NCBI GenBank assembly: GCA_963422735.1
Contig: OY730476.1
Location: 2,560,001 to 2,624,000 of the forward strand
Length of the DNA stretch: 64,000 nucleotides
Direction of reading: 5' to 3'
Source of the DNA: Candidatus Latescibacterota bacterium
GTDB lineage: Bacteria > Latescibacterota > UBA2968 > UBA8231
Positions within the stretch are counted from its first letter, which is position 1. The number at the start of each line of letters is the position of its first letter. The notes under the pieces are model-generated. The model was not told the DNA's origin. It saw nothing but the letters and a program-made list of their open reading frames with translations, and did no database searches. The position numbers and the translations under genes were made by a program. Positions 13,100 to 62,500 of the stretch are shown here, piece by piece.

Positions 13100-14251
13100 A
13101 TGGACGTCTTCGCGTTCCGCAAGGAGCTTATTTCAGAATACGAACGCTTCTCTCGAAGTTTCACCCAGATCCGGGCGGCAGAGGCGGCAGACATTCACAA
13201 AGCTGTTGATGAGGCTTACGCCAGTGGCCGTTTCTGGCCCGCTCCCCTCATCCAGTTGAACCCAAATTTCGTGCCGGATGGGTCTATTGACGAGTTTGTA
13301 GCAAAGGGCGCCCTCGAGGCGGAGTGCGCGAAGATCTTTCGCATCAAGAGCCCAACCGACCCCCTCGGCCAACCGCTCGTGTTGCACAAACACCAAGCCG
13401 AAGCCATAGCTATCGCCCGACGAGGCGAGAGCTATGTCCTGACAACGGGTACAGGATCCGGCAAATCGCTCAGTTACTTCATCCCCATTGTCAATGACGT
13501 ATTGCGGCGGAAGAAGTCCGGCGACCCCTGCAAGGGCATCTGTGCCATGGTTGTCTATCCGATGAATGCCCTGTGCAACAGCCAGTGCGAGGAGTTGGAG
13601 AAATTTCTCAAGCGCGGCTATGGCGAGGGTAGCCAACCGGTGACCTTTGCCCGTTATACCGGCCAAGAAACTAACGAGGAGCGGGAGCACATTGCGAAGA
13701 ATCCTCCCGACATCCTCCTGACGAACTACGTCATGCTCGAGTTAATCATGACGAGGTTCATAGAGACCGATAAAGCAGTGCGGCAACACGCCGCCGGGCT
13801 ACGGTTTCTGGTCTTGGACGAATTGCACACGTACCGGGGGCGTCAAGGGGCTGACGTGGCCATGCTGGTCCGGCGCGTGCGGGAGCGGTTCAACGAGAAT
13901 CTCCTCTGTATCGGCACCTCTGCCACCATGGCTTCAGAGGGTAAGGCCGAGGAGCAGAATGCGGCTGTTGCGAACATCGCCAGTCGGCTGTTCGGGGTCG
14001 CTGTCAGCGCGGACAACATCATCACCGAAACCTTGGAGCCCGTTACCAACGACGAAACGCCTAGCGATCCATCCAGCCTGAGACACGCCATCGAGACAGG
14101 CGTACCGGCGAGCCCAACCTACGATGAACTTTCAAGACATCCGGTTGCAGCTTGGGTGGAACGGAAGCTCGGCCTGGGGGATCATTGCCAACGGCTCGAA
14201 ACTGCGTCTCCTCCGCGACAACGCCAGCCTGACTCGGCCCGCCTGCATTGA
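13100..14251 (+). pseudogene. DEAD/DEAH-box helicase, C-terminally truncated (defence-associated type)
   Basis: TGTGSGKS, YPMNAL, TNYVMLE, DELHTY, TSAT present; motifs V/VI and the second RecA domain absent; helicase-like sequence ends near 14175. Confidence 0.85.
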
Positions 14252-17200
14252 GGCCGACTTGGACCTCATGTTCGCAGAGGCACTCTATGCGGATTTTGCG
14301 GCTTTCTGGCTCACCGTCCACGCCAGCCGTTTGCAGCCAACCAATGGCAAGCCGTCTAGTTGCATCATCGAAAGCTGGCGCACCCAAGCTCATCAGACCG
14401 GTGAACGCGCCTTAGACAATCTCCGCGACGGCGTCACCCAAGCCCTACGGCAGATCGGCAACGGCTTCCTACAGCATCCGGGCAACGATGCGCTGCGGAC
14501 CAACCTCGACGCGGGCAAGCTCTCGCCCGAGGGCTATTTCCAGCAGCTTCTCCGGTTCATTTACCGCCTGCTCTTTCTCTTTACGGCCGAAGAGCGCGAT
14601 CTCCTGCATATACCGGGGGCCACCAACCAACAGCGCACCCTGTTCGCCGAGGGGTATTCTCTTTCTCGGTTGCGCGACCGCGCCCTGCGCCGACGCCATT
14701 ACGACCACCACCACGATCTCTATGAGGGCCTGCGGATTACCTTCGGTGCGCTCGCCCAAGGGGTGTCTGCTCTGGGGCTGCCGGCTTTAGGCGGCTTGTT
14801 CCGCTCGGATCAGTGCCCGGATTTGGACGGGGCCGCCCTGGCCAATGAGCGGCTTTTGGAAGCGGTGAGGAATCTCGCTTTCTTCCGCACCGACTCCGCC
14901 CTTGCCCGCGTCAACTACCGGGACATGGGCACCGAAGAGCTCGGTTCGGTGTACGAAAGCCTCTTGGAGCTCCAGCCGGTGGTAGATGTGAACGCTGCGC
15001 CTTGGGCTTTTGGCTTTGTTGGCGATGGAAACGGAGAGCAGGCCGGAGGCTCGGCGAGAAAGCTCACGGGCTCGTACTACACGCCCGCTACGCTCGTGAG
15101 CGAGCTAATCAAATCAACGCTCGATCCCGTGCTCGCCCAAGCGGTCGCTGACCGTCCCGAAGATCCGCGGGCCGCCATTCTCGCCTTAAAGGTCATCGAT
15201 CCGGCATGCGGCTCCGGGCATTTCCTCCTAGCGGCGGCACGGCGCATGGCTGCCGAGATTGCCCGTATCGAGGCTGGTATGAGCAGATCCGGCGAGACTG
15301 CACACCAGCATGCGCTGCGGGACGTGGTGCAAAACTGCATCTACGGGGTGGATCGGAACTCGCTGGCGGTTGAGCTGTGCAAGACCGCCCTGTGGATCGA
15401 AACCGTGCAGCCGGGCAAGCCGCTGACCTTTCTCGATGCGCACATCTTGCACGGCGACAGCCTCGTCGGCGTTCTCGACCCGGAGATTATGGCAAACGGC
15501 ATTCCGGCCGCAGCGTACAAGCCCTTGACCGGCGATGATAAGGCCGTCTGCACCGAGCTCAAAAAGCGCAACCGCCAAGCGGGCGACGCGGTGCAGGGCG
15601 ATCTGTTCAATAAAGACAGCCTGCTCGAAGTGGCGGTGGCTACCTTAGACCTCGACGACATGCCCGAGGAAACGATTGAGGATGTAGAGAAAAAGCGCGC
15701 CGCGTATGCAGCCATGCGCGTACAGGAAGATCGCACCCAAGAGGAACTGCGGGCGAATTTGTTTGTCGGGGCGTATTTTGCCCAAAAGACGCGGGGCAGC
15801 ACGGACGCGGTGCCGATCACCGAGGATTTCAACCGCCTCGACGCCGGCTTGGTCATGCGGCCCGGCGTCTGTGATGCGGTTGGCAAGCTAGCCCGGGAGC
15901 ATCGCTTCTTTCATTGGCATCTGGCCTTTGCCGAGATCGTGCAGGATGGGGGGTTTGACGTGGTGTTGGGAAATCCGCCGTGGGAACGCATCAAGTTGCA
16001 GGAGCAGGAGTTTTTTGCGTCGCGGTCGCCGGACATCGCCCATGCTCCGAACAAGGCCGCCCGCGACCGGCTTATCAAGCAACTAGCCCTCGAAGACGCC
16101 CTGCCTGCTGAAAAGGCCCTTTTTGCCGAGTTCCAAACCGCACAACGGCGAGCCGAGGCCACTTCTCAGTTTGTCCGCACCGGGGATAGATTCCCGCTTG
16201 CCGGCATTGGCGATGTCAACACGTATGCGGTATTTGCCGAGTTGTTCTTCGAGTTGATCGGTTCGCGAGGGAGAGCGGGCCTGATCGTACCTTCTGGCAT
16301 TGCCACCGACCATTCGACCAAAGCGTTTTTCGACGAAATTGTCACCAACAAAAGACTCGTCAGCCTCTACGACTTTGAGAACCGGGAGAAAGTTTTCCCA
16401 AGCATAGACAGCCGGATCAAATTCTGCCTGCTCACGCTGACCGGCACCGAGCATCCCTGTCCACAGGCCGAGTTCGCCTTCTTCCTGCACCAAGCCGAGC
16501 AACTGCGCGATCCCGAGCGTCGGTTTGCGTTATCAGCGGAAGATTTCGCCCTGTTCAATCCCAACACCCGCACCTGCCCCATCTTCCGCACCCGGCGCGA
16601 CATGGAAATCGCCCGCAAGATGTACCGCCGGGCCGGCGTCCTGTGGAAGGAGGCGAAAGGCGGCGAGGAGGAAGTGAACCCTTGGGGCGTGAAGTTCCAG
16701 CGCATGTTCGACATGTCCAATGACTCCGGCCTCTTCCGCACCCGCGAGCAGTTGGAAGAAGCGGGCTGGCATCTTGTGGGCAACGCGTTCATGCACCCTT
16801 CGACGAGCAAGGAGCACGAGCAGTCCGTCGCCGGCATAGGCGACGCAACGAGCGGCCGCTACCTCCCCCTGTACGAAGCCAAGCTGTTCCACCAATACGA
16901 CCATCGCTTCGCCACCTTTGACGGGGTTTCGGAAAAAGACCGCAAAGGCGGCAAGGCCCGCCCCATGACGGCGGCGGAAAAAGCGGGCGCTCAGGCCGTT
17001 GTCCTTCCTCGATATTGGGTGCCAGAAGAAGAAGTGCAAAAAAGACTTGACAAAACCGGAACGACCGAATTTTTGACGACCGACAGGACAGGACAGGACA
17101 GGACAGGACAGGACAGGACAGGACAGGACAGGACAGGACAGGACAGGACAGGACAGGACAGGACAGGACAGGACAGGACAGGACAGGACAGGACAGGACA

Positions 17201-17357
17201 GGACAGGACAGGACAGGACAAGTCCTATTACGTCGCACTACGAGCAATCACAAGAGCTACGGACGTCCGCACGACGATCAGTGCAGTCGTGCCGCGAAAC
17301 GGACTGGGCAAGGGAACAGTCATCCGACTCAAGAATGGGAGTTGGCTTTGCGACTGA
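14124..17357 (+). CDS. Eco57I-like (type IIG / DrmM-like) N6-adenine DNA methyltransferase, N-terminally clipped, phase-variable
   Basis: ELGSVYESLL, GSYYTP, DPACGSGHFL, GNPPW, LPLYEAK; (DRTGQ)9 from the repeat tract; stops before the C-terminal domain in the assembled phase. Confidence 0.88.
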   Translation: MNFQDIRLQLGWNGSSAWGIIANGSKLRLLRDNASLTRPACIEADLDLMFAEALYADFAAFWLTVHASRLQPTNGKPSSCIIESWRTQAHQTGERALDNLRDGVTQALRQIGNGFLQHPGNDALRTNLDAGKLSPEGYFQQLLRFIYRLLFLFTAEERDLLHIPGATNQQRTLFAEGYSLSRLRDRALRRRHYDHHHDLYEGLRITFGALAQGVSALGLPALGGLFRSDQCPDLDGAALANERLLEAVRNLAFFRTDSALARVNYRDMGTEELGSVYESLLELQPVVDVNAAPWAFGFVGDGNGEQAGGSARKLTGSYYTPATLVSELIKSTLDPVLAQAVADRPEDPRAAILALKVIDPACGSGHFLLAAARRMAAEIARIEAGMSRSGETAHQHALRDVVQNCIYGVDRNSLAVELCKTALWIETVQPGKPLTFLDAHILHGDSLVGVLDPEIMANGIPAAAYKPLTGDDKAVCTELKKRNRQAGDAVQGDLFNKDSLLEVAVATLDLDDMPEETIEDVEKKRAAYAAMRVQEDRTQEELRANLFVGAYFAQKTRGSTDAVPITEDFNRLDAGLVMRPGVCDAVGKLAREHRFFHWHLAFAEIVQDGGFDVVLGNPPWERIKLQEQEFFASRSPDIAHAPNKAARDRLIKQLALEDALPAEKALFAEFQTAQRRAEATSQFVRTGDRFPLAGIGDVNTYAVFAELFFELIGSRGRAGLIVPSGIATDHSTKAFFDEIVTNKRLVSLYDFENREKVFPSIDSRIKFCLLTLTGTEHPCPQAEFAFFLHQAEQLRDPERRFALSAEDFALFNPNTRTCPIFRTRRDMEIARKMYRRAGVLWKEAKGGEEEVNPWGVKFQRMFDMSNDSGLFRTREQLEEAGWHLVGNAFMHPSTSKEHEQSVAGIGDATSGRYLPLYEAKLFHQYDHRFATFDGVSEKDRKGGKARPMTAAEKAGAQAVVLPRYWVPEEEVQKRLDKTGTTEFLTTDRTGQDRTGQDRTGQDRTGQDRTGQDRTGQDRTGQDRTGQDRTGQDKSYYVALRAITRATDVRTTISAVVPRNGLGKGTVIRLKNGSWLCD
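17082..17220 (+). repeat. Simple sequence repeat (GACAG)27 + GACA inside the methyltransferase
   Basis: Perfect pentamer tract of 139 bp, counted directly. Confidence 0.98.
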
Positions 17358-18060
17358 TCACAACAGCAACCAACCAGAGAACAGTGATAGCGTCTCTTAT
17401 TCCAGACACGGGCCTTGGTCACAAAGGAGCCGTCATCACGCTGGACGTTGGATCATTCCTTTTCGAAAAACCACCAATGCCACGAATGAGCGGACCGGCA
17501 TCGCTTCGTTCGTCCCAAGGTCAGGCATGAGCGATCGGGCACCACTTCTCTGTATCGAAGATGCTGAGGCTGCGGCACTGTTTGTCTCGACCCTCAATTC
17601 ACTTGTGCTGGACTTCGCGGCTCGGTCTGCGGTTGGCGGTACAGACCTCAGTTTCTTCATCGTCAAGCAGCTCCCCGTCCTGCCACCCGAAGCCTATCTC
17701 GAAGAGGCTTTCTCCGGCCTCAGATACGTCGAACTCATCGTCCCTCGCGTCTTAGAGCTTACGTACACCGCCGCCGACCTCGAAGGTTTCGCCCGCGACT
17801 TAGGCTACGACGGCCCGCCCTTTTCCTACGACGACGACCGCCGCCACCGCCTCAAGTGCGAGCTGGACGCCATCTTCGCGCACCTATACCAGCTAGACCG
17901 CGACGACCTCGAATGGATTTTAGACGCGCCCGAGCCGAGCGAGTCCTTCCCAGCCCTCAAACGCAACGAGATGAAGGAGTTCGGCGAATACCGCACCCAA
18001 CGCTACGTCCTCTGCGCCTACGACCAATTGGCCCGCGGTGAGCTCCCAGACCTGACGTAA
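17221..18060 (+). CDS. C-terminal part of the methyltransferase (segment 3 plus C-terminal domain), out of frame in this phase
   Basis: LNSLVLDFAAR..FFIVKQLPVLPP..ELDAIFAHLY..FGEYRT; frame open from the repeat to 18060; internal ATG at 17527. Confidence 0.85.
   Translation, partial: SPITSHYEQSQELRTSARRSVQSCRETDWAREQSSDSRMGVGFATDHNSNQPENSDSVSYSRHGPWSQRSRHHAGRWIIPFRKTTNATNERTGIASFVPRSGMSDRAPLLCIEDAEAAALFVSTLNSLVLDFAARSAVGGTDLSFFIVKQLPVLPPEAYLEEAFSGLRYVELIVPRVLELTYTAADLEGFARDLGYDGPPFSYDDDRRHRLKCELDAIFAHLYQLDRDDLEWILDAPEPSESFPALKRNEMKEFGEYRTQRYVLCAYDQLARGELPDLT
17226..17556 (+). repeat. Three tandem diverged ~110-bp paralogous segments, one per reading frame
   Basis: YYVALRAITRATDVRTTISAVVPRNGLG (from 17226), WELALRLITTATNQRTVIASLIPDTGLG (from 17336), WIIPFRKTTNATNERTGIASFVPRSGMS (from 17449). 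Confidence 0.88.
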
Positions 18061-18164: not shown

Positions 18165-19039
18165 CTACTCGGCTTCGTCTAACAGGTGCCTGAAGGCTTC
18201 GAGGCTGGGCACTTGTATGGCCGCCCGAAACAACTGCTTGAGGCGCTGCACATCGTCGATGGCCCCAAGGCGGGCGGCCAACGGATCCGACGCGGCCAGC
18301 CCAAAGCGAATCTCCAGCACGTCGAGCAGATCTTCAATGGCGCGTTCTCGGCCTCCTCGCTCAATGCCTTGCTCAAGGGCCTTTTCCGTGAAATACTGCA
18401 CTACCGACGATTCGTACATGGTCGCCTCCGAGATGATGGTCATAATCGTTTCTAATCGATACACCAAACCGCTCAAAATAGCAAGGTCGGCTAAGTAATT
18501 CGCCTTGAGGGCCTCGGCCATCGGCACCCCTTGCGCCCGGTGGATACACTGGCGCAACCACGCCTCGGCATTCATACCTGCCGGTCGCTGCATCAACGGC
18601 GCAAAGGGGATCAAGCCTGAATGCCCCTCGTCGAGCATGCGTTGGCCGTCTAGCTCAATCAGCCGAATCACCTTGTATTGCACCAACACGCGGTAGCCGT
18701 GTCGCTCTTGGAGATAGTGCCCCGGATCACGCTGGCCGGCGTCGGGACGCAGATAGATGACGTGGGAATAGATCGGCAGCCCGTGCTGCTCAATGCCGCG
18801 CCCGATATAGCCGGCTATGCGCTGCGGCATGGGTGGTTTGCTGTCGGTGGTTTGAAATTCGTGATGGACCAACGCTTCGTCGCCGCCGATTTGCACGTAG
18901 ATGAGGCTGTCGGTGCGGTGTGTTTCGACAGTAGGTTGACGCCGAGGACCTCAAGGTCGTCTTGCTGGAGGGCGAAGCGGGCAAAGTCAGCCGGGTAGGT
19001 GTGGATGAGATGCTTGGCGATAGTATCGAATTCGGCCAT
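18165..19039 (-). pseudogene. Rpn family recombination-promoting nuclease/putative transposase, frameshifted
   Basis: MAEFDTIAKHL..DF start at 19039; frame change near 18935; HHEFQT..PMPQRI, C-terminal LEIRFG..LKQL. Confidence 0.8.
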
Positions 19040-19641: not shown

Positions 19642-19828
19642 GTTTGGTATTGAGGAACTTTTGAATAAACTCGGTCCCGTTGGAACGATTCGTTTTCTCC
19701 ATCAGTACGAAGCGGGCAAGGGCAATTACTCGGTTGATCGGCAGCAATGGCTTACTGTGCCAGATATCGAGGCGCTCGCAAACCAGATGCAGCGGTCACG
19801 CGAAGACAATTCCTCCAGTAGAGTTTAA
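19604..19828 (+). CDS. Small protein typically paired with PIN toxins (putative antitoxin)
   Basis: LGPVGTIRFLHQYEAGKGNYSVDRQQWL; AGGAG RBS; overlaps the PIN remnant. Confidence 0.65.
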   Translation: MNALKMTANQIHEFGIEELLNKLGPVGTIRFLHQYEAGKGNYSVDRQQWLTVPDIEALANQMQRSREDNSSSRV

Positions 19829-21612
19829 TGCTGATTCCGTCCCTACATCGTCTGTTAGGGTTGCCCCTATTGGTCGCGGCGTACGCGGCACTAGCTGGCT
19901 GCGGACCGGGCGTGGTGCTGGACGATGTTCCTCGGGACCGCACCTTGATCTTGATGAATGGCGGTCCGAACCAGTATTCCCTTTTCGACAATCAGAACCC
20001 TTATATCCCCGGCTCCGATCAGGGATACCACATGGGCACGTTGCCAGCGGTGTTTGAGCCACTGATCATGTACAACGTGCTCACTGGGGAACACGAGAAC
20101 TGGCTGGCCGAGAGTTGGGAATACGACGACAGCTTTACCGTGCTCACCGTGAAAATTCGCGAGGGCATCGAATGGGCCGACGGCACCCCCTTCACCGCGC
20201 ACGACGTGGCCTTCACCTTCGGCATGCTGCGCGATCGCGCTGAGTCCATGGTGCATCTGGCCGACCTGCCCGAGTTTTTCGACTCCACCGAGGTCGTCGA
20301 TGACCACACCGTGCGGCTAGTGCTTAAAAAGGCGGGGCCGGCGTTTTGGGCGACCACGCTGAGTAGCAACCACGGCATCTTTGTCTTGCCCGAACACATC
20401 TGGGAAGACCAGGACCCCCTAGAGTTCACCTTTCACGACATTGACGGCGGCTTGCCCTTGGGCACGGGGCCCTATCGCCTCGTGTACGCTTCGCCGCATC
20501 AGAAAATCTACGATCTGCGCCAAGACTGGTGGGCGGCCAAGACGGGGTTCAAGCGCCTGCCGAAGATTCAGCGAATCATCTACGTGCCGCAGCAGGAGGA
20601 GAGCCAGGCCGCGCAACTGCTGCTGACCGACCAGCTCGACATGGCACCCATCATGCAGGTGCTCACCCTCGAAAGCGTGTTGGAACGCAATGCGCGGGTC
20701 GTGACCTTCTCTGATCGGCAGCCGCCCTACGGCTACCTCGACTGGTGTCCCATCGACCTCAATATGAACTGCTCGGAGCCGCCCTTTGACGATCCGCAGA
20801 TTCGCCGGGCTATTAGCATGGCCATTGACCGGGAGAAACTCGTCCAGCTAGCCGAATCGGGGGCGGGCGTGGTCGCGCTGCATCCCTTCGCGCCCTACGA
20901 ATGGTTCGCGCCTTTTGACGAGGCCCTACAGGAAATCCTCGCGCGGCACGGGTACGATACTCAGCCGCACCTGCAAGAGGTCGATCGGATCATGGGAGGG
21001 AAAGGCTATCGCAAGGACGACGAGGGCCTGTGGATCAGCCCGGAGGGCGAGCGTCTCGAGATCGCCCTGTACGTGCCGCAGTGGCTGCGGGCCTACGGTC
21101 CGCCGCTGACCCAACAACTGCGCGACGCTGGTTTCGATGCGAACTTTGACACCTCGCCCGGCCTGACCTCTCTCGTGCAGACCGGGGAGCAGAAGGTTTC
21201 TCTCGGCTGCAAGGGCCCCAGTGGGGTGCGCGGCATGGATCCCTATCTGATGCTGTCCTACTACACCTCGCAGTACTTCCGGCCCACTGGGCAGCCGGCG
21301 CCGCTGTGGTCCACCATTTCGCGCTGGCGCAACGAGGAGTTCGACCGCATTGTCGAGCGCATCGCTCCCCTACAGGTCGGCGACGAGGAACTGTTGGAAC
21401 TATTCGTCGAGGCCATGGAAATCTGGGTGGGGGAGTTGCCCGACATCTTCCTTGCACAGCTCATCATCCGCTATCCTTGCAACACCACCCGCTGGACCGG
21501 CTGGCCGAGCCAGCAAGATCCCTACGGCTTCCCGCACTCTTGGCAGTGGGAGCTGTTGAAGACCTTCATCCGGCTGGAGCCTGCCGGGGCAATGGCTCGA
21601 CACGAGGGGTAA
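19828..21612 (+). CDS. ABC transporter substrate-binding lipoprotein, family 5
   Basis: LAGC lipobox, WLAESW, WADGTPFTAHDVAFTF, GTGPY, PFDDPQIRRAI. Confidence 0.92.
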   Translation: MLIPSLHRLLGLPLLVAAYAALAGCGPGVVLDDVPRDRTLILMNGGPNQYSLFDNQNPYIPGSDQGYHMGTLPAVFEPLIMYNVLTGEHENWLAESWEYDDSFTVLTVKIREGIEWADGTPFTAHDVAFTFGMLRDRAESMVHLADLPEFFDSTEVVDDHTVRLVLKKAGPAFWATTLSSNHGIFVLPEHIWEDQDPLEFTFHDIDGGLPLGTGPYRLVYASPHQKIYDLRQDWWAAKTGFKRLPKIQRIIYVPQQEESQAAQLLLTDQLDMAPIMQVLTLESVLERNARVVTFSDRQPPYGYLDWCPIDLNMNCSEPPFDDPQIRRAISMAIDREKLVQLAESGAGVVALHPFAPYEWFAPFDEALQEILARHGYDTQPHLQEVDRIMGGKGYRKDDEGLWISPEGERLEIALYVPQWLRAYGPPLTQQLRDAGFDANFDTSPGLTSLVQTGEQKVSLGCKGPSGVRGMDPYLMLSYYTSQYFRPTGQPAPLWSTISRWRNEEFDRIVERIAPLQVGDEELLELFVEAMEIWVGELPDIFLAQLIIRYPCNTTRWTGWPSQQDPYGFPHSWQWELLKTFIRLEPAGAMARHEG

Positions 21613-59960: not shown

Positions 59961-60638
59961 TCAGACGATTTGGATGCCCCATTCATCACATCGCGCTTTC
60001 ACGGTATCGGCAGGTTCCAAGCTGATGAGGGCCCCCTCGACCGCTTTGTCGGGATGCTGCCGCCGCATCAACTCCACCTTGTCGGCAAACCGATCCACCT
60101 CTTCGACCTTACAGGCGGCCGACTTGACCTCAAAGACCAACAGCGAGCTGTCGTCGATCAGAATATCGACTTCGTAGGTTCGTCCCGCCGGGCCCACTAC
60201 TCCCTCCACATCCGCTAGCTTCTGTCGCAGCCGCACGTTGTCTGCGGACACATCTTGCCGCTTCAGGCCAAAGCGCAACACCTCGGCGACCATGTTTTCG
60301 AGCTTCCTTCCCGCCCGCCGCTGGAACCCCCCGACAGTCAAATCGACCTTAGCGTCTGTATAGGCTATCTGCTGGCTTATCTGTTCAAAGCGCTCGTCAA
60401 TTTTTTCAAAGCGCTCGTCAATTTTTTCAAAGCGCTCGTTGACCTCCGAGCGGAACTGACCAAACTCGCCGCGGAAGGCATGCAACTCAGCGAGCACTGC
60501 GGCCACTTCCTTTTTGGTGGCAAACGCTTCGATGAACGCCGTATAGGCGCGCTGCTCCAGCTCTGGGTGGCGCTTGAGCAGTGCCGGCAACTGCCTTTCG
60601 AGCGTCTCCAATAATTCTTCGTCGGTTAAAAGGGCCAT
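59961..60638 (-). CDS. Coiled-coil plus PD-(D/E)XK nuclease-like protein (DUF3782-like)
   Basis: ERFEKID heptads; YEVDILI..FEVKS. Confidence 0.65.
   Translation of the reverse strand: MALLTDEELLETLERQLPALLKRHPELEQRAYTAFIEAFATKKEVAAVLAELHAFRGEFGQFRSEVNERFEKIDERFEKIDERFEQISQQIAYTDAKVDLTVGGFQRRAGRKLENMVAEVLRFGLKRQDVSADNVRLRQKLADVEGVVGPAGRTYEVDILIDDSSLLVFEVKSAACKVEEVDRFADKVELMRRQHPDKAVEGALISLEPADTVKARCDEWGIQIV
60384..60439. repeat. 21-bp in-frame tandem repeat (2.7 copies)
   Basis: TTCAAAGCGCTCGTCAATTTT units at 60384, 60405 and 60426 (partial). Confidence 0.9.
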
Positions 60639-62458: not shown

Positions 62459-62500
62459 AACGCGGGAATGATGTCGAGAACGCGGGAATGATGTCGAGAA
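62459..62500. repeat. 20-bp perfect tandem duplication
   Basis: AACGCGGGAATGATGTCGAG twice. Confidence 0.9.

Follow-up and report, generated by a model that had tools for sequence, protein, structure and literature searches.

This study of a 64,000-nucleotide (nt) stretch of the Candidatus Latescibacterota bacterium genome (contig OY730476.1, positions 2,560,001 to 2,624,000; hereafter the window) reveals that a DNA adenine methylase gene carries a hypermutable pentanucleotide tract, behind which three paralogous protein segments lie one in each reading frame. The same anatomy recurs in a large family of relatives, with coding constraint on every segment type in its own frame, and we consider it very probable that it represents a selected multi-state switch. 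Phase variation driven by simple sequence repeats (SSRs) is usually seen as an on/off process. In this family, selection has apparently shaped all three frames, which are probably linked by translational restart signals, and one locus could encode three defined states.

Tandem Repeats Finder places a GACAG repeat of 27.8 copies in the window, without a single imperfection (100% perfect, 17082-17220), and 27 exact units span 17082-17216. The open reading frame (ORF) that hosts this tract, 1077 amino acids (aa) in its present phase, has Pfam matches to Eco57I and related methylase families, which together with the repeat finding bears out the original prediction of (GACAG)27 within an Eco57I-like methylase. 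The same prediction, made from the letters alone, had proposed that each frame is open from the tract to a segment of its own, and three-frame translation agrees: frame 0, the present phase, runs through the DRTGQ repeats into YYVALRAITRATDVRT..., frame 2 into WELALRLITTATNQRT..., and frame 1 into WIIPFRKTTNATNERT... followed by a C-terminal domain (CTD) of ~170 aa (stops in Table 1). Its assignment of repeat number modulo 3 to the segments is arithmetically correct, and the DRTGQ linker is indeed identical in all frames, which is automatic because the unit is 5 nt long. The three paralogous segments are ~37 aa each, and their R codons at 17241, 17351 and 17464 give the predicted spacing of 110 and 113 nt. 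Within the window the segments share 38-48% of identity at the protein level (29 aa) and 48-53% at the DNA level. A regular expression (regex) for the segment motif finds four matches in the six frames of the window, the three segments and one match containing stop codons. Shuffled windows average 0.92 matches (100 shuffles), and chance was rejected as the source of the pattern.

A scan of one genome per species yielded 528 relatives, the best 80 of which were studied together with the window. Almost all of the studied relatives are metagenome-assembled genomes (MAGs) titled as sponge-associated lineages, from many phyla; the set also includes one Dehalococcoidia MAG from soil and one Chloroflexi MAG from activated sludge. 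Repeats of 5 residues occur at the tract site in many of the 120 best protein relatives, with lengths that fall in discrete classes. At the DNA level a hypermutable tract follows directly after a conserved RYWVPE..RLDK stretch in 78 of the 79 assessable loci, one further locus (L027) having no downstream sequence and another (L035) being masked at the tract site. The units are homopolymers in 11 loci and repeats of 2 nt (1 locus), 4 nt (23), 5 nt (26), 7 nt (7), 8 nt (6), 10 nt (1), 11 nt (2) and 31 nt (1), 33 distinct canonical non-homopolymer units occur, tracts reach up to 54 units, and no unit is a multiple of 3. In L071, two copies of a unit of ~29 nt were judged by eye.

The layout behind the tract was classified wherever the downstream sequence reached 900 nt or more (66 loci), segments being found by regex in their own frame. 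Class I, which the original prediction had not noticed and which is the commoner layout, in 37 of the 66 loci, has a segment A, then segments C and D 107-113 nt further on in the -1 frame, then the CTD, while the third frame ends inside A; C and D share a frame and are mostly 120 nt apart. Class II, in 12 loci including the window, has segments B, B' and E with the CTD in successive -1 frames, 107-119 nt apart and mostly 110 or 113 nt. The other 17 loci are partial, rearranged or missed by the regex. Out-of-frame steps, those from the first segment to the second and, in class II, from the second to the third, are nearly all 2 mod 3 and mostly measure 107, 110 or 113 nt, the one exception being 106 nt in L014. 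Every segment can be reached in its own frame in 12/12 class II and 33/37 class I loci, two of the four class I misses being artefacts of the start point used. The original prediction had proposed to search homologs for an SSR with a unit length not divisible by 3 and staggered segments behind it; the tract is present in 78/79 loci and the layout fits in 49/66. Dozens of independent assemblies show the staggered layout, some of them long-read genomes in a single contig.

The survey also shows how tracts and segments are distributed among related loci. Several genomes carry more than one methylase locus, each with its own unit and layout (L017, L030 and L031 in one Rhodothermales genome; L006 and L045; L059 and L066). 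Four loci of the same genus (L083-L086) share ~86-91% of DNA identity with the window over the last ~400 nt of the gene and show no such identity over the segment region 17221-17652. In protein clusters, identical bodies are joined to different cassettes, E-type in P0137 and C+D-type in P0138. The segment cassette region seems to be exchanged between loci.

Selection on the segments was assessed by the ratio of non-synonymous to synonymous change (pN/pS, pooled Nei-Gojobori proportions over 29 codons). In their own frame all types are constrained, with values of 0.45 for A, 0.48 for B, 0.36 for B', 0.41 for C, 0.38 for D and 0.32 for E, whereas the same DNA read in the two shifted frames gives 0.87-1.9. 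When the columns demanded by the regex are dropped, own-frame values are 0.37-0.58 and the own frame is still the lowest for every type; the upper end is type B, whose consensus is conserved in 12 loci (0.58 without motif columns). Variability is highest at the third codon position. Frames that must be read through contain 0 stops in any locus, against 11-75 stops in frames no longer needed. Segments of one type share an identity of 0.50-0.66 between loci, compared with 0.32-0.46 between the paralogs of one locus. Because orthologs from different loci are more alike than paralogs of the same locus, concerted evolution or gene conversion was rejected as the cause of segment conservation.

Evidence that the tract changes state in nature comes from alleles that are otherwise the same. 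Three proteins from three assemblies (P0075, P0164 and P0165) agree at every one of the 322 aa that precede the tract (100% identity), but carry repeats of 35, 40 and 65 residues and read three different frames, a B'-type short frame, the E-long frame and a tail frame. All nine examined multi-member protein clusters at 90% identity differ in tract length or state. The states captured in the assemblies are spread over the frames, with 16 tail, 12 A and 9 long in class I, and 4, 4 and 4 in class II. The sequencing runs that contain the window's locus were available as Logan k-mer contigs, which end ~30 nt into the tract; a run of raw reads (X15) gave 0 reads of the locus, and no RNA run was listed as containing it. 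A metagenome scan for the window's own allele gave a best match of 65% identity, and the loci found were used as an outgroup. Pairs with a real tract and flanks of at least 90% identity were also sought among 115 loci; the only ones are 100% identical with the same tracts, and are probably duplicate filings.

The overlap of stop and start codons between frames is a new finding of this study; the original prediction had missed it. As a rule, the stop that closes a frame is a TGA sharing letters with an ATG, GTG or TTG of the next (-1) frame. In class I the tail frame stops at A+46 in 25/37 loci (ATGA 16, GTGA 8) and the A frame at C+64/67 in 26/37 (GTGA 14, ATGA 10, TTGA 1, GTAA 1); in class II the B' frame stops at E+64/67 in 8/12 loci (ATGA 7, GTGA 1) and the B frame at B'-2 in 8/12 (TTGA 7). 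In the window, the ATGA overlap between frames 2 and 1 (Table 1) has an AAGG at 17517-17520, 6 nt upstream of the ATG at 17527, with an energy of -3.3 kcal/mol for pairing with the anti-Shine-Dalgarno (anti-SD) sequence. The frame-0 stop sits 7 nt past a TTG at 17348 in frame 2, a possible restart codon that follows GGGAG (17337-17341) by 6 nt with an energy of -6.8 kcal/mol. Across the family, Met occurs at the E junction in 10/12 loci, as compared with 0/23 outgroup segments (Fisher p = 3.6e-7) and 0/37 D segments. Mean anti-SD energies range from -4.4 to -5.3 kcal/mol at the junctions; the corresponding offsets of other segment types give -0.05 to -2.6 and random CTD codons -2.1, with Mann-Whitney p values of 2e-3 to 5e-10 over the comparisons. 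Database gene callers open separate ORFs at junction codons in several relatives (P0132, P0135, P0139 and P0171). The arrangement expected of coupled overlaps, a stop lying on a start codon that an SD-like sequence precedes by 5-10 nt, is found here, but it is partly present in ordinary homologs as well. On balance these features lead us to lean slightly towards a relay that works, in which a ribosome ending in one frame would restart in the next. We also considered whether the junctions could be stimulators of frameshifting instead of restart sites, a reading that we disfavour because the conserved ATG/GTG/TTG codons and the SD spacing of 5-7 nt appear to fit initiation better.

The outgroup loci (L120-L161), which have no tract, also show AGG/AGA-encoded Arg, SD-like sequence and GTG at segment offsets +54 to +66, where the switch clade has its proposed restart site. 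An internal start for a separate CTD may be ancestral to the family.

As a whole, the findings are best explained, in our view with moderate confidence, by a slipped-strand tract that rotates translation among three built frames, together with a restart relay between them. The observed part of this explanation consists of the anatomy, its conservation, the per-frame coding constraint, and identical alleles that differ in tract and frame; proposed in addition are a restart of translation, an assembly of the separate pieces, and a functional difference between the states, whether in activity mode or in DNA specificity. The tract would be a slipped-strand phase-variation site in a linker ahead of the last module of a PglX/DrmMI-like methylase that belongs to a system resembling ARMADA type I, a defence system treated below. 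Since the unit is never a multiple of 3, gain or loss of units would rotate translation among the three frames. Unlike a plain on/off switch, each frame would yield a defined product: body plus B, body plus B', or body plus E fused to the CTD in class II, and body plus A, body plus C and D with the CTD, or a short tail in class I. Ribosomes would probably restart at the stop/start overlaps, and the short states would then still produce the CTD, as a chain of its own. Through frame choice and the restart relay, the repeat number would set which segment the catalytic body carries and whether the enzyme is made as one chain or split. Because ARMADA defence needs the methylase, switching of the methylase would switch the defence without unopposed restriction. 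We speculate further that the gene is frame-multiplexed, with three purpose-built frames, relays that supply the CTD in all of them, and states that differ in specificity or in the balance between methylation and defence, making it a heritable, recombinase-free three-state immune switch that has spread horizontally among sponge symbionts; this wider proposal is tentative, possible rather than probable.

Several observations weigh against the switch with its relay. The loci are linked by descent and horizontal transfer, and the counts given above are non-independent. Detection of segments by an own-frame regex biases the constraint estimates, which column removal corrects in part. As for the relay, ordinary homologs have GTG at +63 (12/17 Val codons) and AGG/AGA at the preceding Arg (13/17), and their sequence upstream of +63 is moderately SD-like (-3.06). 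Because ordinary homologs have both features, GTG and AGG/AGA codons were down-weighted as start evidence, including the GTG found for the Val codon at 18/19 C junctions. Furthermore, the energy at the E junction differs weakly from that of the outgroup (p = 0.04), the A frame stops before the overlap in 11/37 class I loci, and a restart from B to B' would rely on TTG. Finally, the window allele itself is without both helicase partners of the system and without its own N-terminus.

The original prediction had gone further and read the locus as a switch of DNA specificity. What stands of that claim is the recombinase-free, repeat-driven choice among three frames, which is conserved and constrained in homologs and has near-identical alleles in all frames; what is not borne out is the reading of the segments as target-recognition elements. 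If they were such elements, the three repeat phases would give three methylation specificities. This would fit the finding that alternative segments, three in class II and two in class I, take the same place relative to the body. A working relay would fit as well, since it would supply the CTD in all phases and leave the segment as the main difference between the states. Related DISARM class 1-like and PglX-type methylases are, moreover, described as varying their coding sequence by programmed inversions (PMC9881135). The segments and CTD, on the other hand, match no known domain: nine of ten sequences had no Pfam family at E values up to 10 and the tenth had one irrelevant weak match, no NCBIfam or PADLOC match was obtained, and sequence and profile searches of the PDB gave matches that cover the methylase core only. 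A resemblance to TaqI_C-type domains is not claimed here. The segment types are also conserved across loci (0.50-0.66, as given above) with type-specific residues and are not hypervariable, an unusual picture for determinants of specificity, class I has a frame without any segment, and two of the window's three products end soon after their segment. Such type-specific conservation argues for three defined modes over fast-evolving specificities, and we regard it as unlikely that the states differ in DNA specificity.

An ordinary on/off switch, in which the long frame alone is functional and the other segments are decaying relics of tandem duplications of ~110 nt, would be in line with the established pattern of SSR-driven methylase switching (PMC7383803, PMC5909438, PMC4889913), with the single frame that gives a full-length fused protein, and with the short tail of the third frame in class I. 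Relics, however, would hardly be constrained in their own frame as strongly as the segments of the long frame or keep type-specific sequences across phyla, as the segments of the short frames do, nor would the read-through frames be kept stop-free and the stops be placed on start codons with SD-like sequence upstream. This explanation is accordingly very unlikely. All isoforms could instead be made together by transcriptional or translational slippage on the tract, with no heritable switching of the DNA. In favour of this, the tracts are long, with up to 54 units, and frameshift suppression at the SSR of a mod gene has been described in a heterologous system (10.64898/2026.04.01.715767), but tract length and frame differ in the DNA between otherwise identical alleles, and each of the three frames is represented among the assemblies. 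Both mechanisms could operate together; slippage as the sole one is highly improbable. That tract lengths and frames are unreliable and the pattern is assembly noise has a negligible probability. Contigs built from short reads do frequently break off in the tract, but tract length has no bearing on the staggered segments, on how they are spaced or on their constraint, and they recur in dozens of independent assemblies.

The outgroup gives an indication of how the layout arose. None of the 45 metagenome homologs at or below 54% identity has an out-of-frame segment or a real tract; 30 of them have one in-frame segment and 15 none by regex. At 55% identity and above, a tract is present in 20/22 loci, and segments occur in two or more frames in 15 of the 16 with enough sequence. 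The C-terminal module is found in 3924 representative proteins, typically once and usually at the C-terminus of proteins of ~1300 aa. Since distant homologs without a tract have a single in-frame segment and the module recurs once per protein, the tract with its staggered duplicates is a derived state of one clade.

The methylase ORF has Pfam matches to Eco57I (4e-20), N6_Mtase and MmeI_Mtase and PADLOC matches to DrmMI (8.2e-71) and Type IIG models, and it contains DPACGSGHF and GNPPW, the AdoMet and NPPW motifs that, with these profiles, characterize gamma-class N6-adenine DNA methylases. It is an Eco57I/PglX/DrmMI-like adenine methylase. It is 77% identical to the methylase of its relative L013, but the alignment begins at L013 residue 167, and ~152 N-terminal residues are missing from the window copy. 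In intact relatives the methylase lies beside a 952-aa Swi2/Snf2 helicase (PADLOC DpdE 7.8e-210, DrmD, BrxHII) and a YprA/DruE-like helicase of ~1700 aa with an MZB domain. The BrxHII/RapA-like 952-aa helicase is present in L013, L073 and L002, and the order YprA-like helicase, Swi2/Snf2 helicase, methylase is found in L013 together with its genome (G041) and, reversed, in L073. This content and order match ARMADA type I, which is described as a YprA-like helicase, a BrxHII/RapA-like helicase and a PglX-like methylase (10.1101/2025.09.15.676423). Both the methylase and its NPPW motif, which the window methylase also contains, are described as required for ARMADA defence (10.1101/2025.09.15.676423; PMC13463889).

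The window retains remains of the two outer genes of such a system in the order YprA to methylase, the first ~373 aa of the YprA-like gene abutting the methylase from its residue ~153. The helicase fragment (residues 1-373) is 85% identical to a 1775-aa YprA-like open frame in G041, which ends in an MZB match, and 41% identical to the N-terminus of a 1695-aa gene in L073. Thus in the window no full YprA-like DExH helicase with DUF1998/MZB adjoins the methylase, and no BrxHII/RapA-like Swi2/Snf2 helicase lies beside it, the best match elsewhere in the genome being 31% identical. The deletion removed most of the YprA-like gene, the whole Snf2 helicase and the N-terminus of the methylase. In three runs this deleted form is the majority, with junction depths of 168.5 (run X1) and 332.2 (X2) and a contiguous depth of 1431.7 (X4). 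A minority branch of two contigs (7404 and 1034 nt) exits at 14177 and rejoins at 14175, with depths of 53.7/61.4 in X1 and 78.8/82.3 in X2, and in X4 with the 1034-nt contig only (116.4); this intact-looking branch makes up ~8-25% of the depth, and the loose end of its entering contig reads as the missing methylase N-terminus. What the window shows is the deleted and more abundant allele of a system resembling ARMADA type I, which the original prediction had not recognized; an intact-looking allele coexists with it at lower depth. The switch architecture is intact in the window, though in an allele that has lost its partners and that is probably out of any working defence system.

Table 1. 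Features of the methylase locus, in window coordinates (n, number of repeat units).
Feature	Coordinates	Strand	Remarks
Hypermutable tract (GACAG)27.8	17082..17220	+	DRTGQ encoded in every frame
Methylase ORF in present phase, ends after segment 1	14124..17357	+	1077 aa
Segment 1 (type B)	17226..17357	+	frame 0; n mod 3 = 0; TGA stop 17355-17357
Segment 2 (type B')	17336..17530	+	frame 2; n mod 3 = 2; TGA stop 17528-17530
Segment 3 (type E) + CTD	17449..18060	+	frame 1; n mod 3 = 1; stop 18058-18060
ATGA overlap	17527..17530	+	frame-1 ATG 17527-17529 (M of GMSDRAPLL) on frame-2 TGA 17528-17530
N-terminal fragment (~373 aa) of YprA/DruE-like DExH helicase, deletion-cut	13100..14251	+	Pfam DEAD 1.7e-26, PADLOC DruE 7.6e-45
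Deletion junction	14175..14177		contigs of three runs branch here (within 14148-14204); polymorphic in source populations

Several elements of this switch have precedents. Haemophilus influenzae lic1 reaches more than two states by means of CAAT repeats preceded by start codons in different frames; its alternative elements are these start codons and not protein modules behind the tract. In NgoAV, an SSR-truncated HsdS, the specificity subunit, is shortened, and the product is functional with an altered specificity. Translational coupling through overlapping ATGA stop/start codons is well known. The overlaps described here share with it the xTGA overlap, the SD-like sequence and the -1 frame, but they lie inside one gene, three frames in series, and the site used would be set by the upstream tract. 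SSR phase-variable methylases, including Type III mod, Type I hsdM/hsdS, Type IIG Cj0031 and those of phasevarions, likewise contain a hypermutable repeat within the reading frame that changes by slipped-strand mispairing (PMC5909438, PMC7383803, PMC4889913). These are described in that work as ON/OFF systems, in contrast to the three frames with constrained modules and stop/start overlaps found here. Programmed inversions in DISARM class 1 DrmMI-like, Cj0031-like and BREX PglX genes also vary a defence methylase within its coding sequence and maintain alternative alleles within a population (PMC9881135). They are described as using inverted repeats and DNA inversion, whereas the loci studied here use a tract and staggered frames, no search for inverted repeats having been made. 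Homopolymeric tracts in Helicobacter canadensis resemble our case in that a repeat towards the 3' end of a gene alters the C-terminal sequence without simple silencing, but conserved paralogous modules in alternative frames or a restart relay are not apparent in the relevant passages of that report (PMC2823697). The available text of the ARMADA paper contains neither "frameshift" nor "phase vari" (10.1101/2025.09.15.676423). In the literature searched, which leaves most subscription journals and supplements aside, we found no account of an SSR followed by alternative functional modules in three frames, and none of phase variation of ARMADA or DISARM methylases. SSR phase variation of methylases, inversions in DISARM-like and PglX genes, SSR-driven C-terminal switching and ATGA coupling are thus each known separately, and what is new is the presence of constrained paralogous modules in all frames, linked by overlaps.

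If the proposed switch is true, it would represent a new design principle for stochastic switching, and ARMADA/DISARM-like defence would be phase-variable through its methylase. It would also provide a handle on the trade-off between phage defence and DNA uptake in dense symbiont communities, here mostly sponge microbiomes, across many phyla. For annotation, methylases of 1150-1200 aa in these genomes that are labelled "frameshifted" or "truncated" are to be read as switch states, not as pseudogenes.

Some further features of the locus and of the window were also observed. In the three runs that show the deletion junction, a contig of minority depth (49-119) swaps 292 nt at 15985-16278 for 274 other letters; this patch lies just after NPPW, where the window methylase departs from that of L013, and the minority version may belong to the intact allele. 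The dominant contig of run X4 has 11 listed single-base differences at 16987-17060, the 74 nt just 5' of the tract, the rest of the gene being identical, which suggests a recombination boundary beside the tract. Downstream of the methylase, an ORF at 18165-18896 on the minus strand (243 aa) has no Pfam match, and a 594-aa ORF at 19828-21612 on the plus strand stands at the position of an SBP_bac_5 solute-binding gene in L013; the related genome with the intact system likely shares synteny of the neighbourhood. Tandem Repeats Finder lists three further short perfect tandem repeats in the window, at 1111-1137, 60384-60439 and 62459-62500, with periods of 12, 21 and 20 nt, respectively, and 2-3 copies each.

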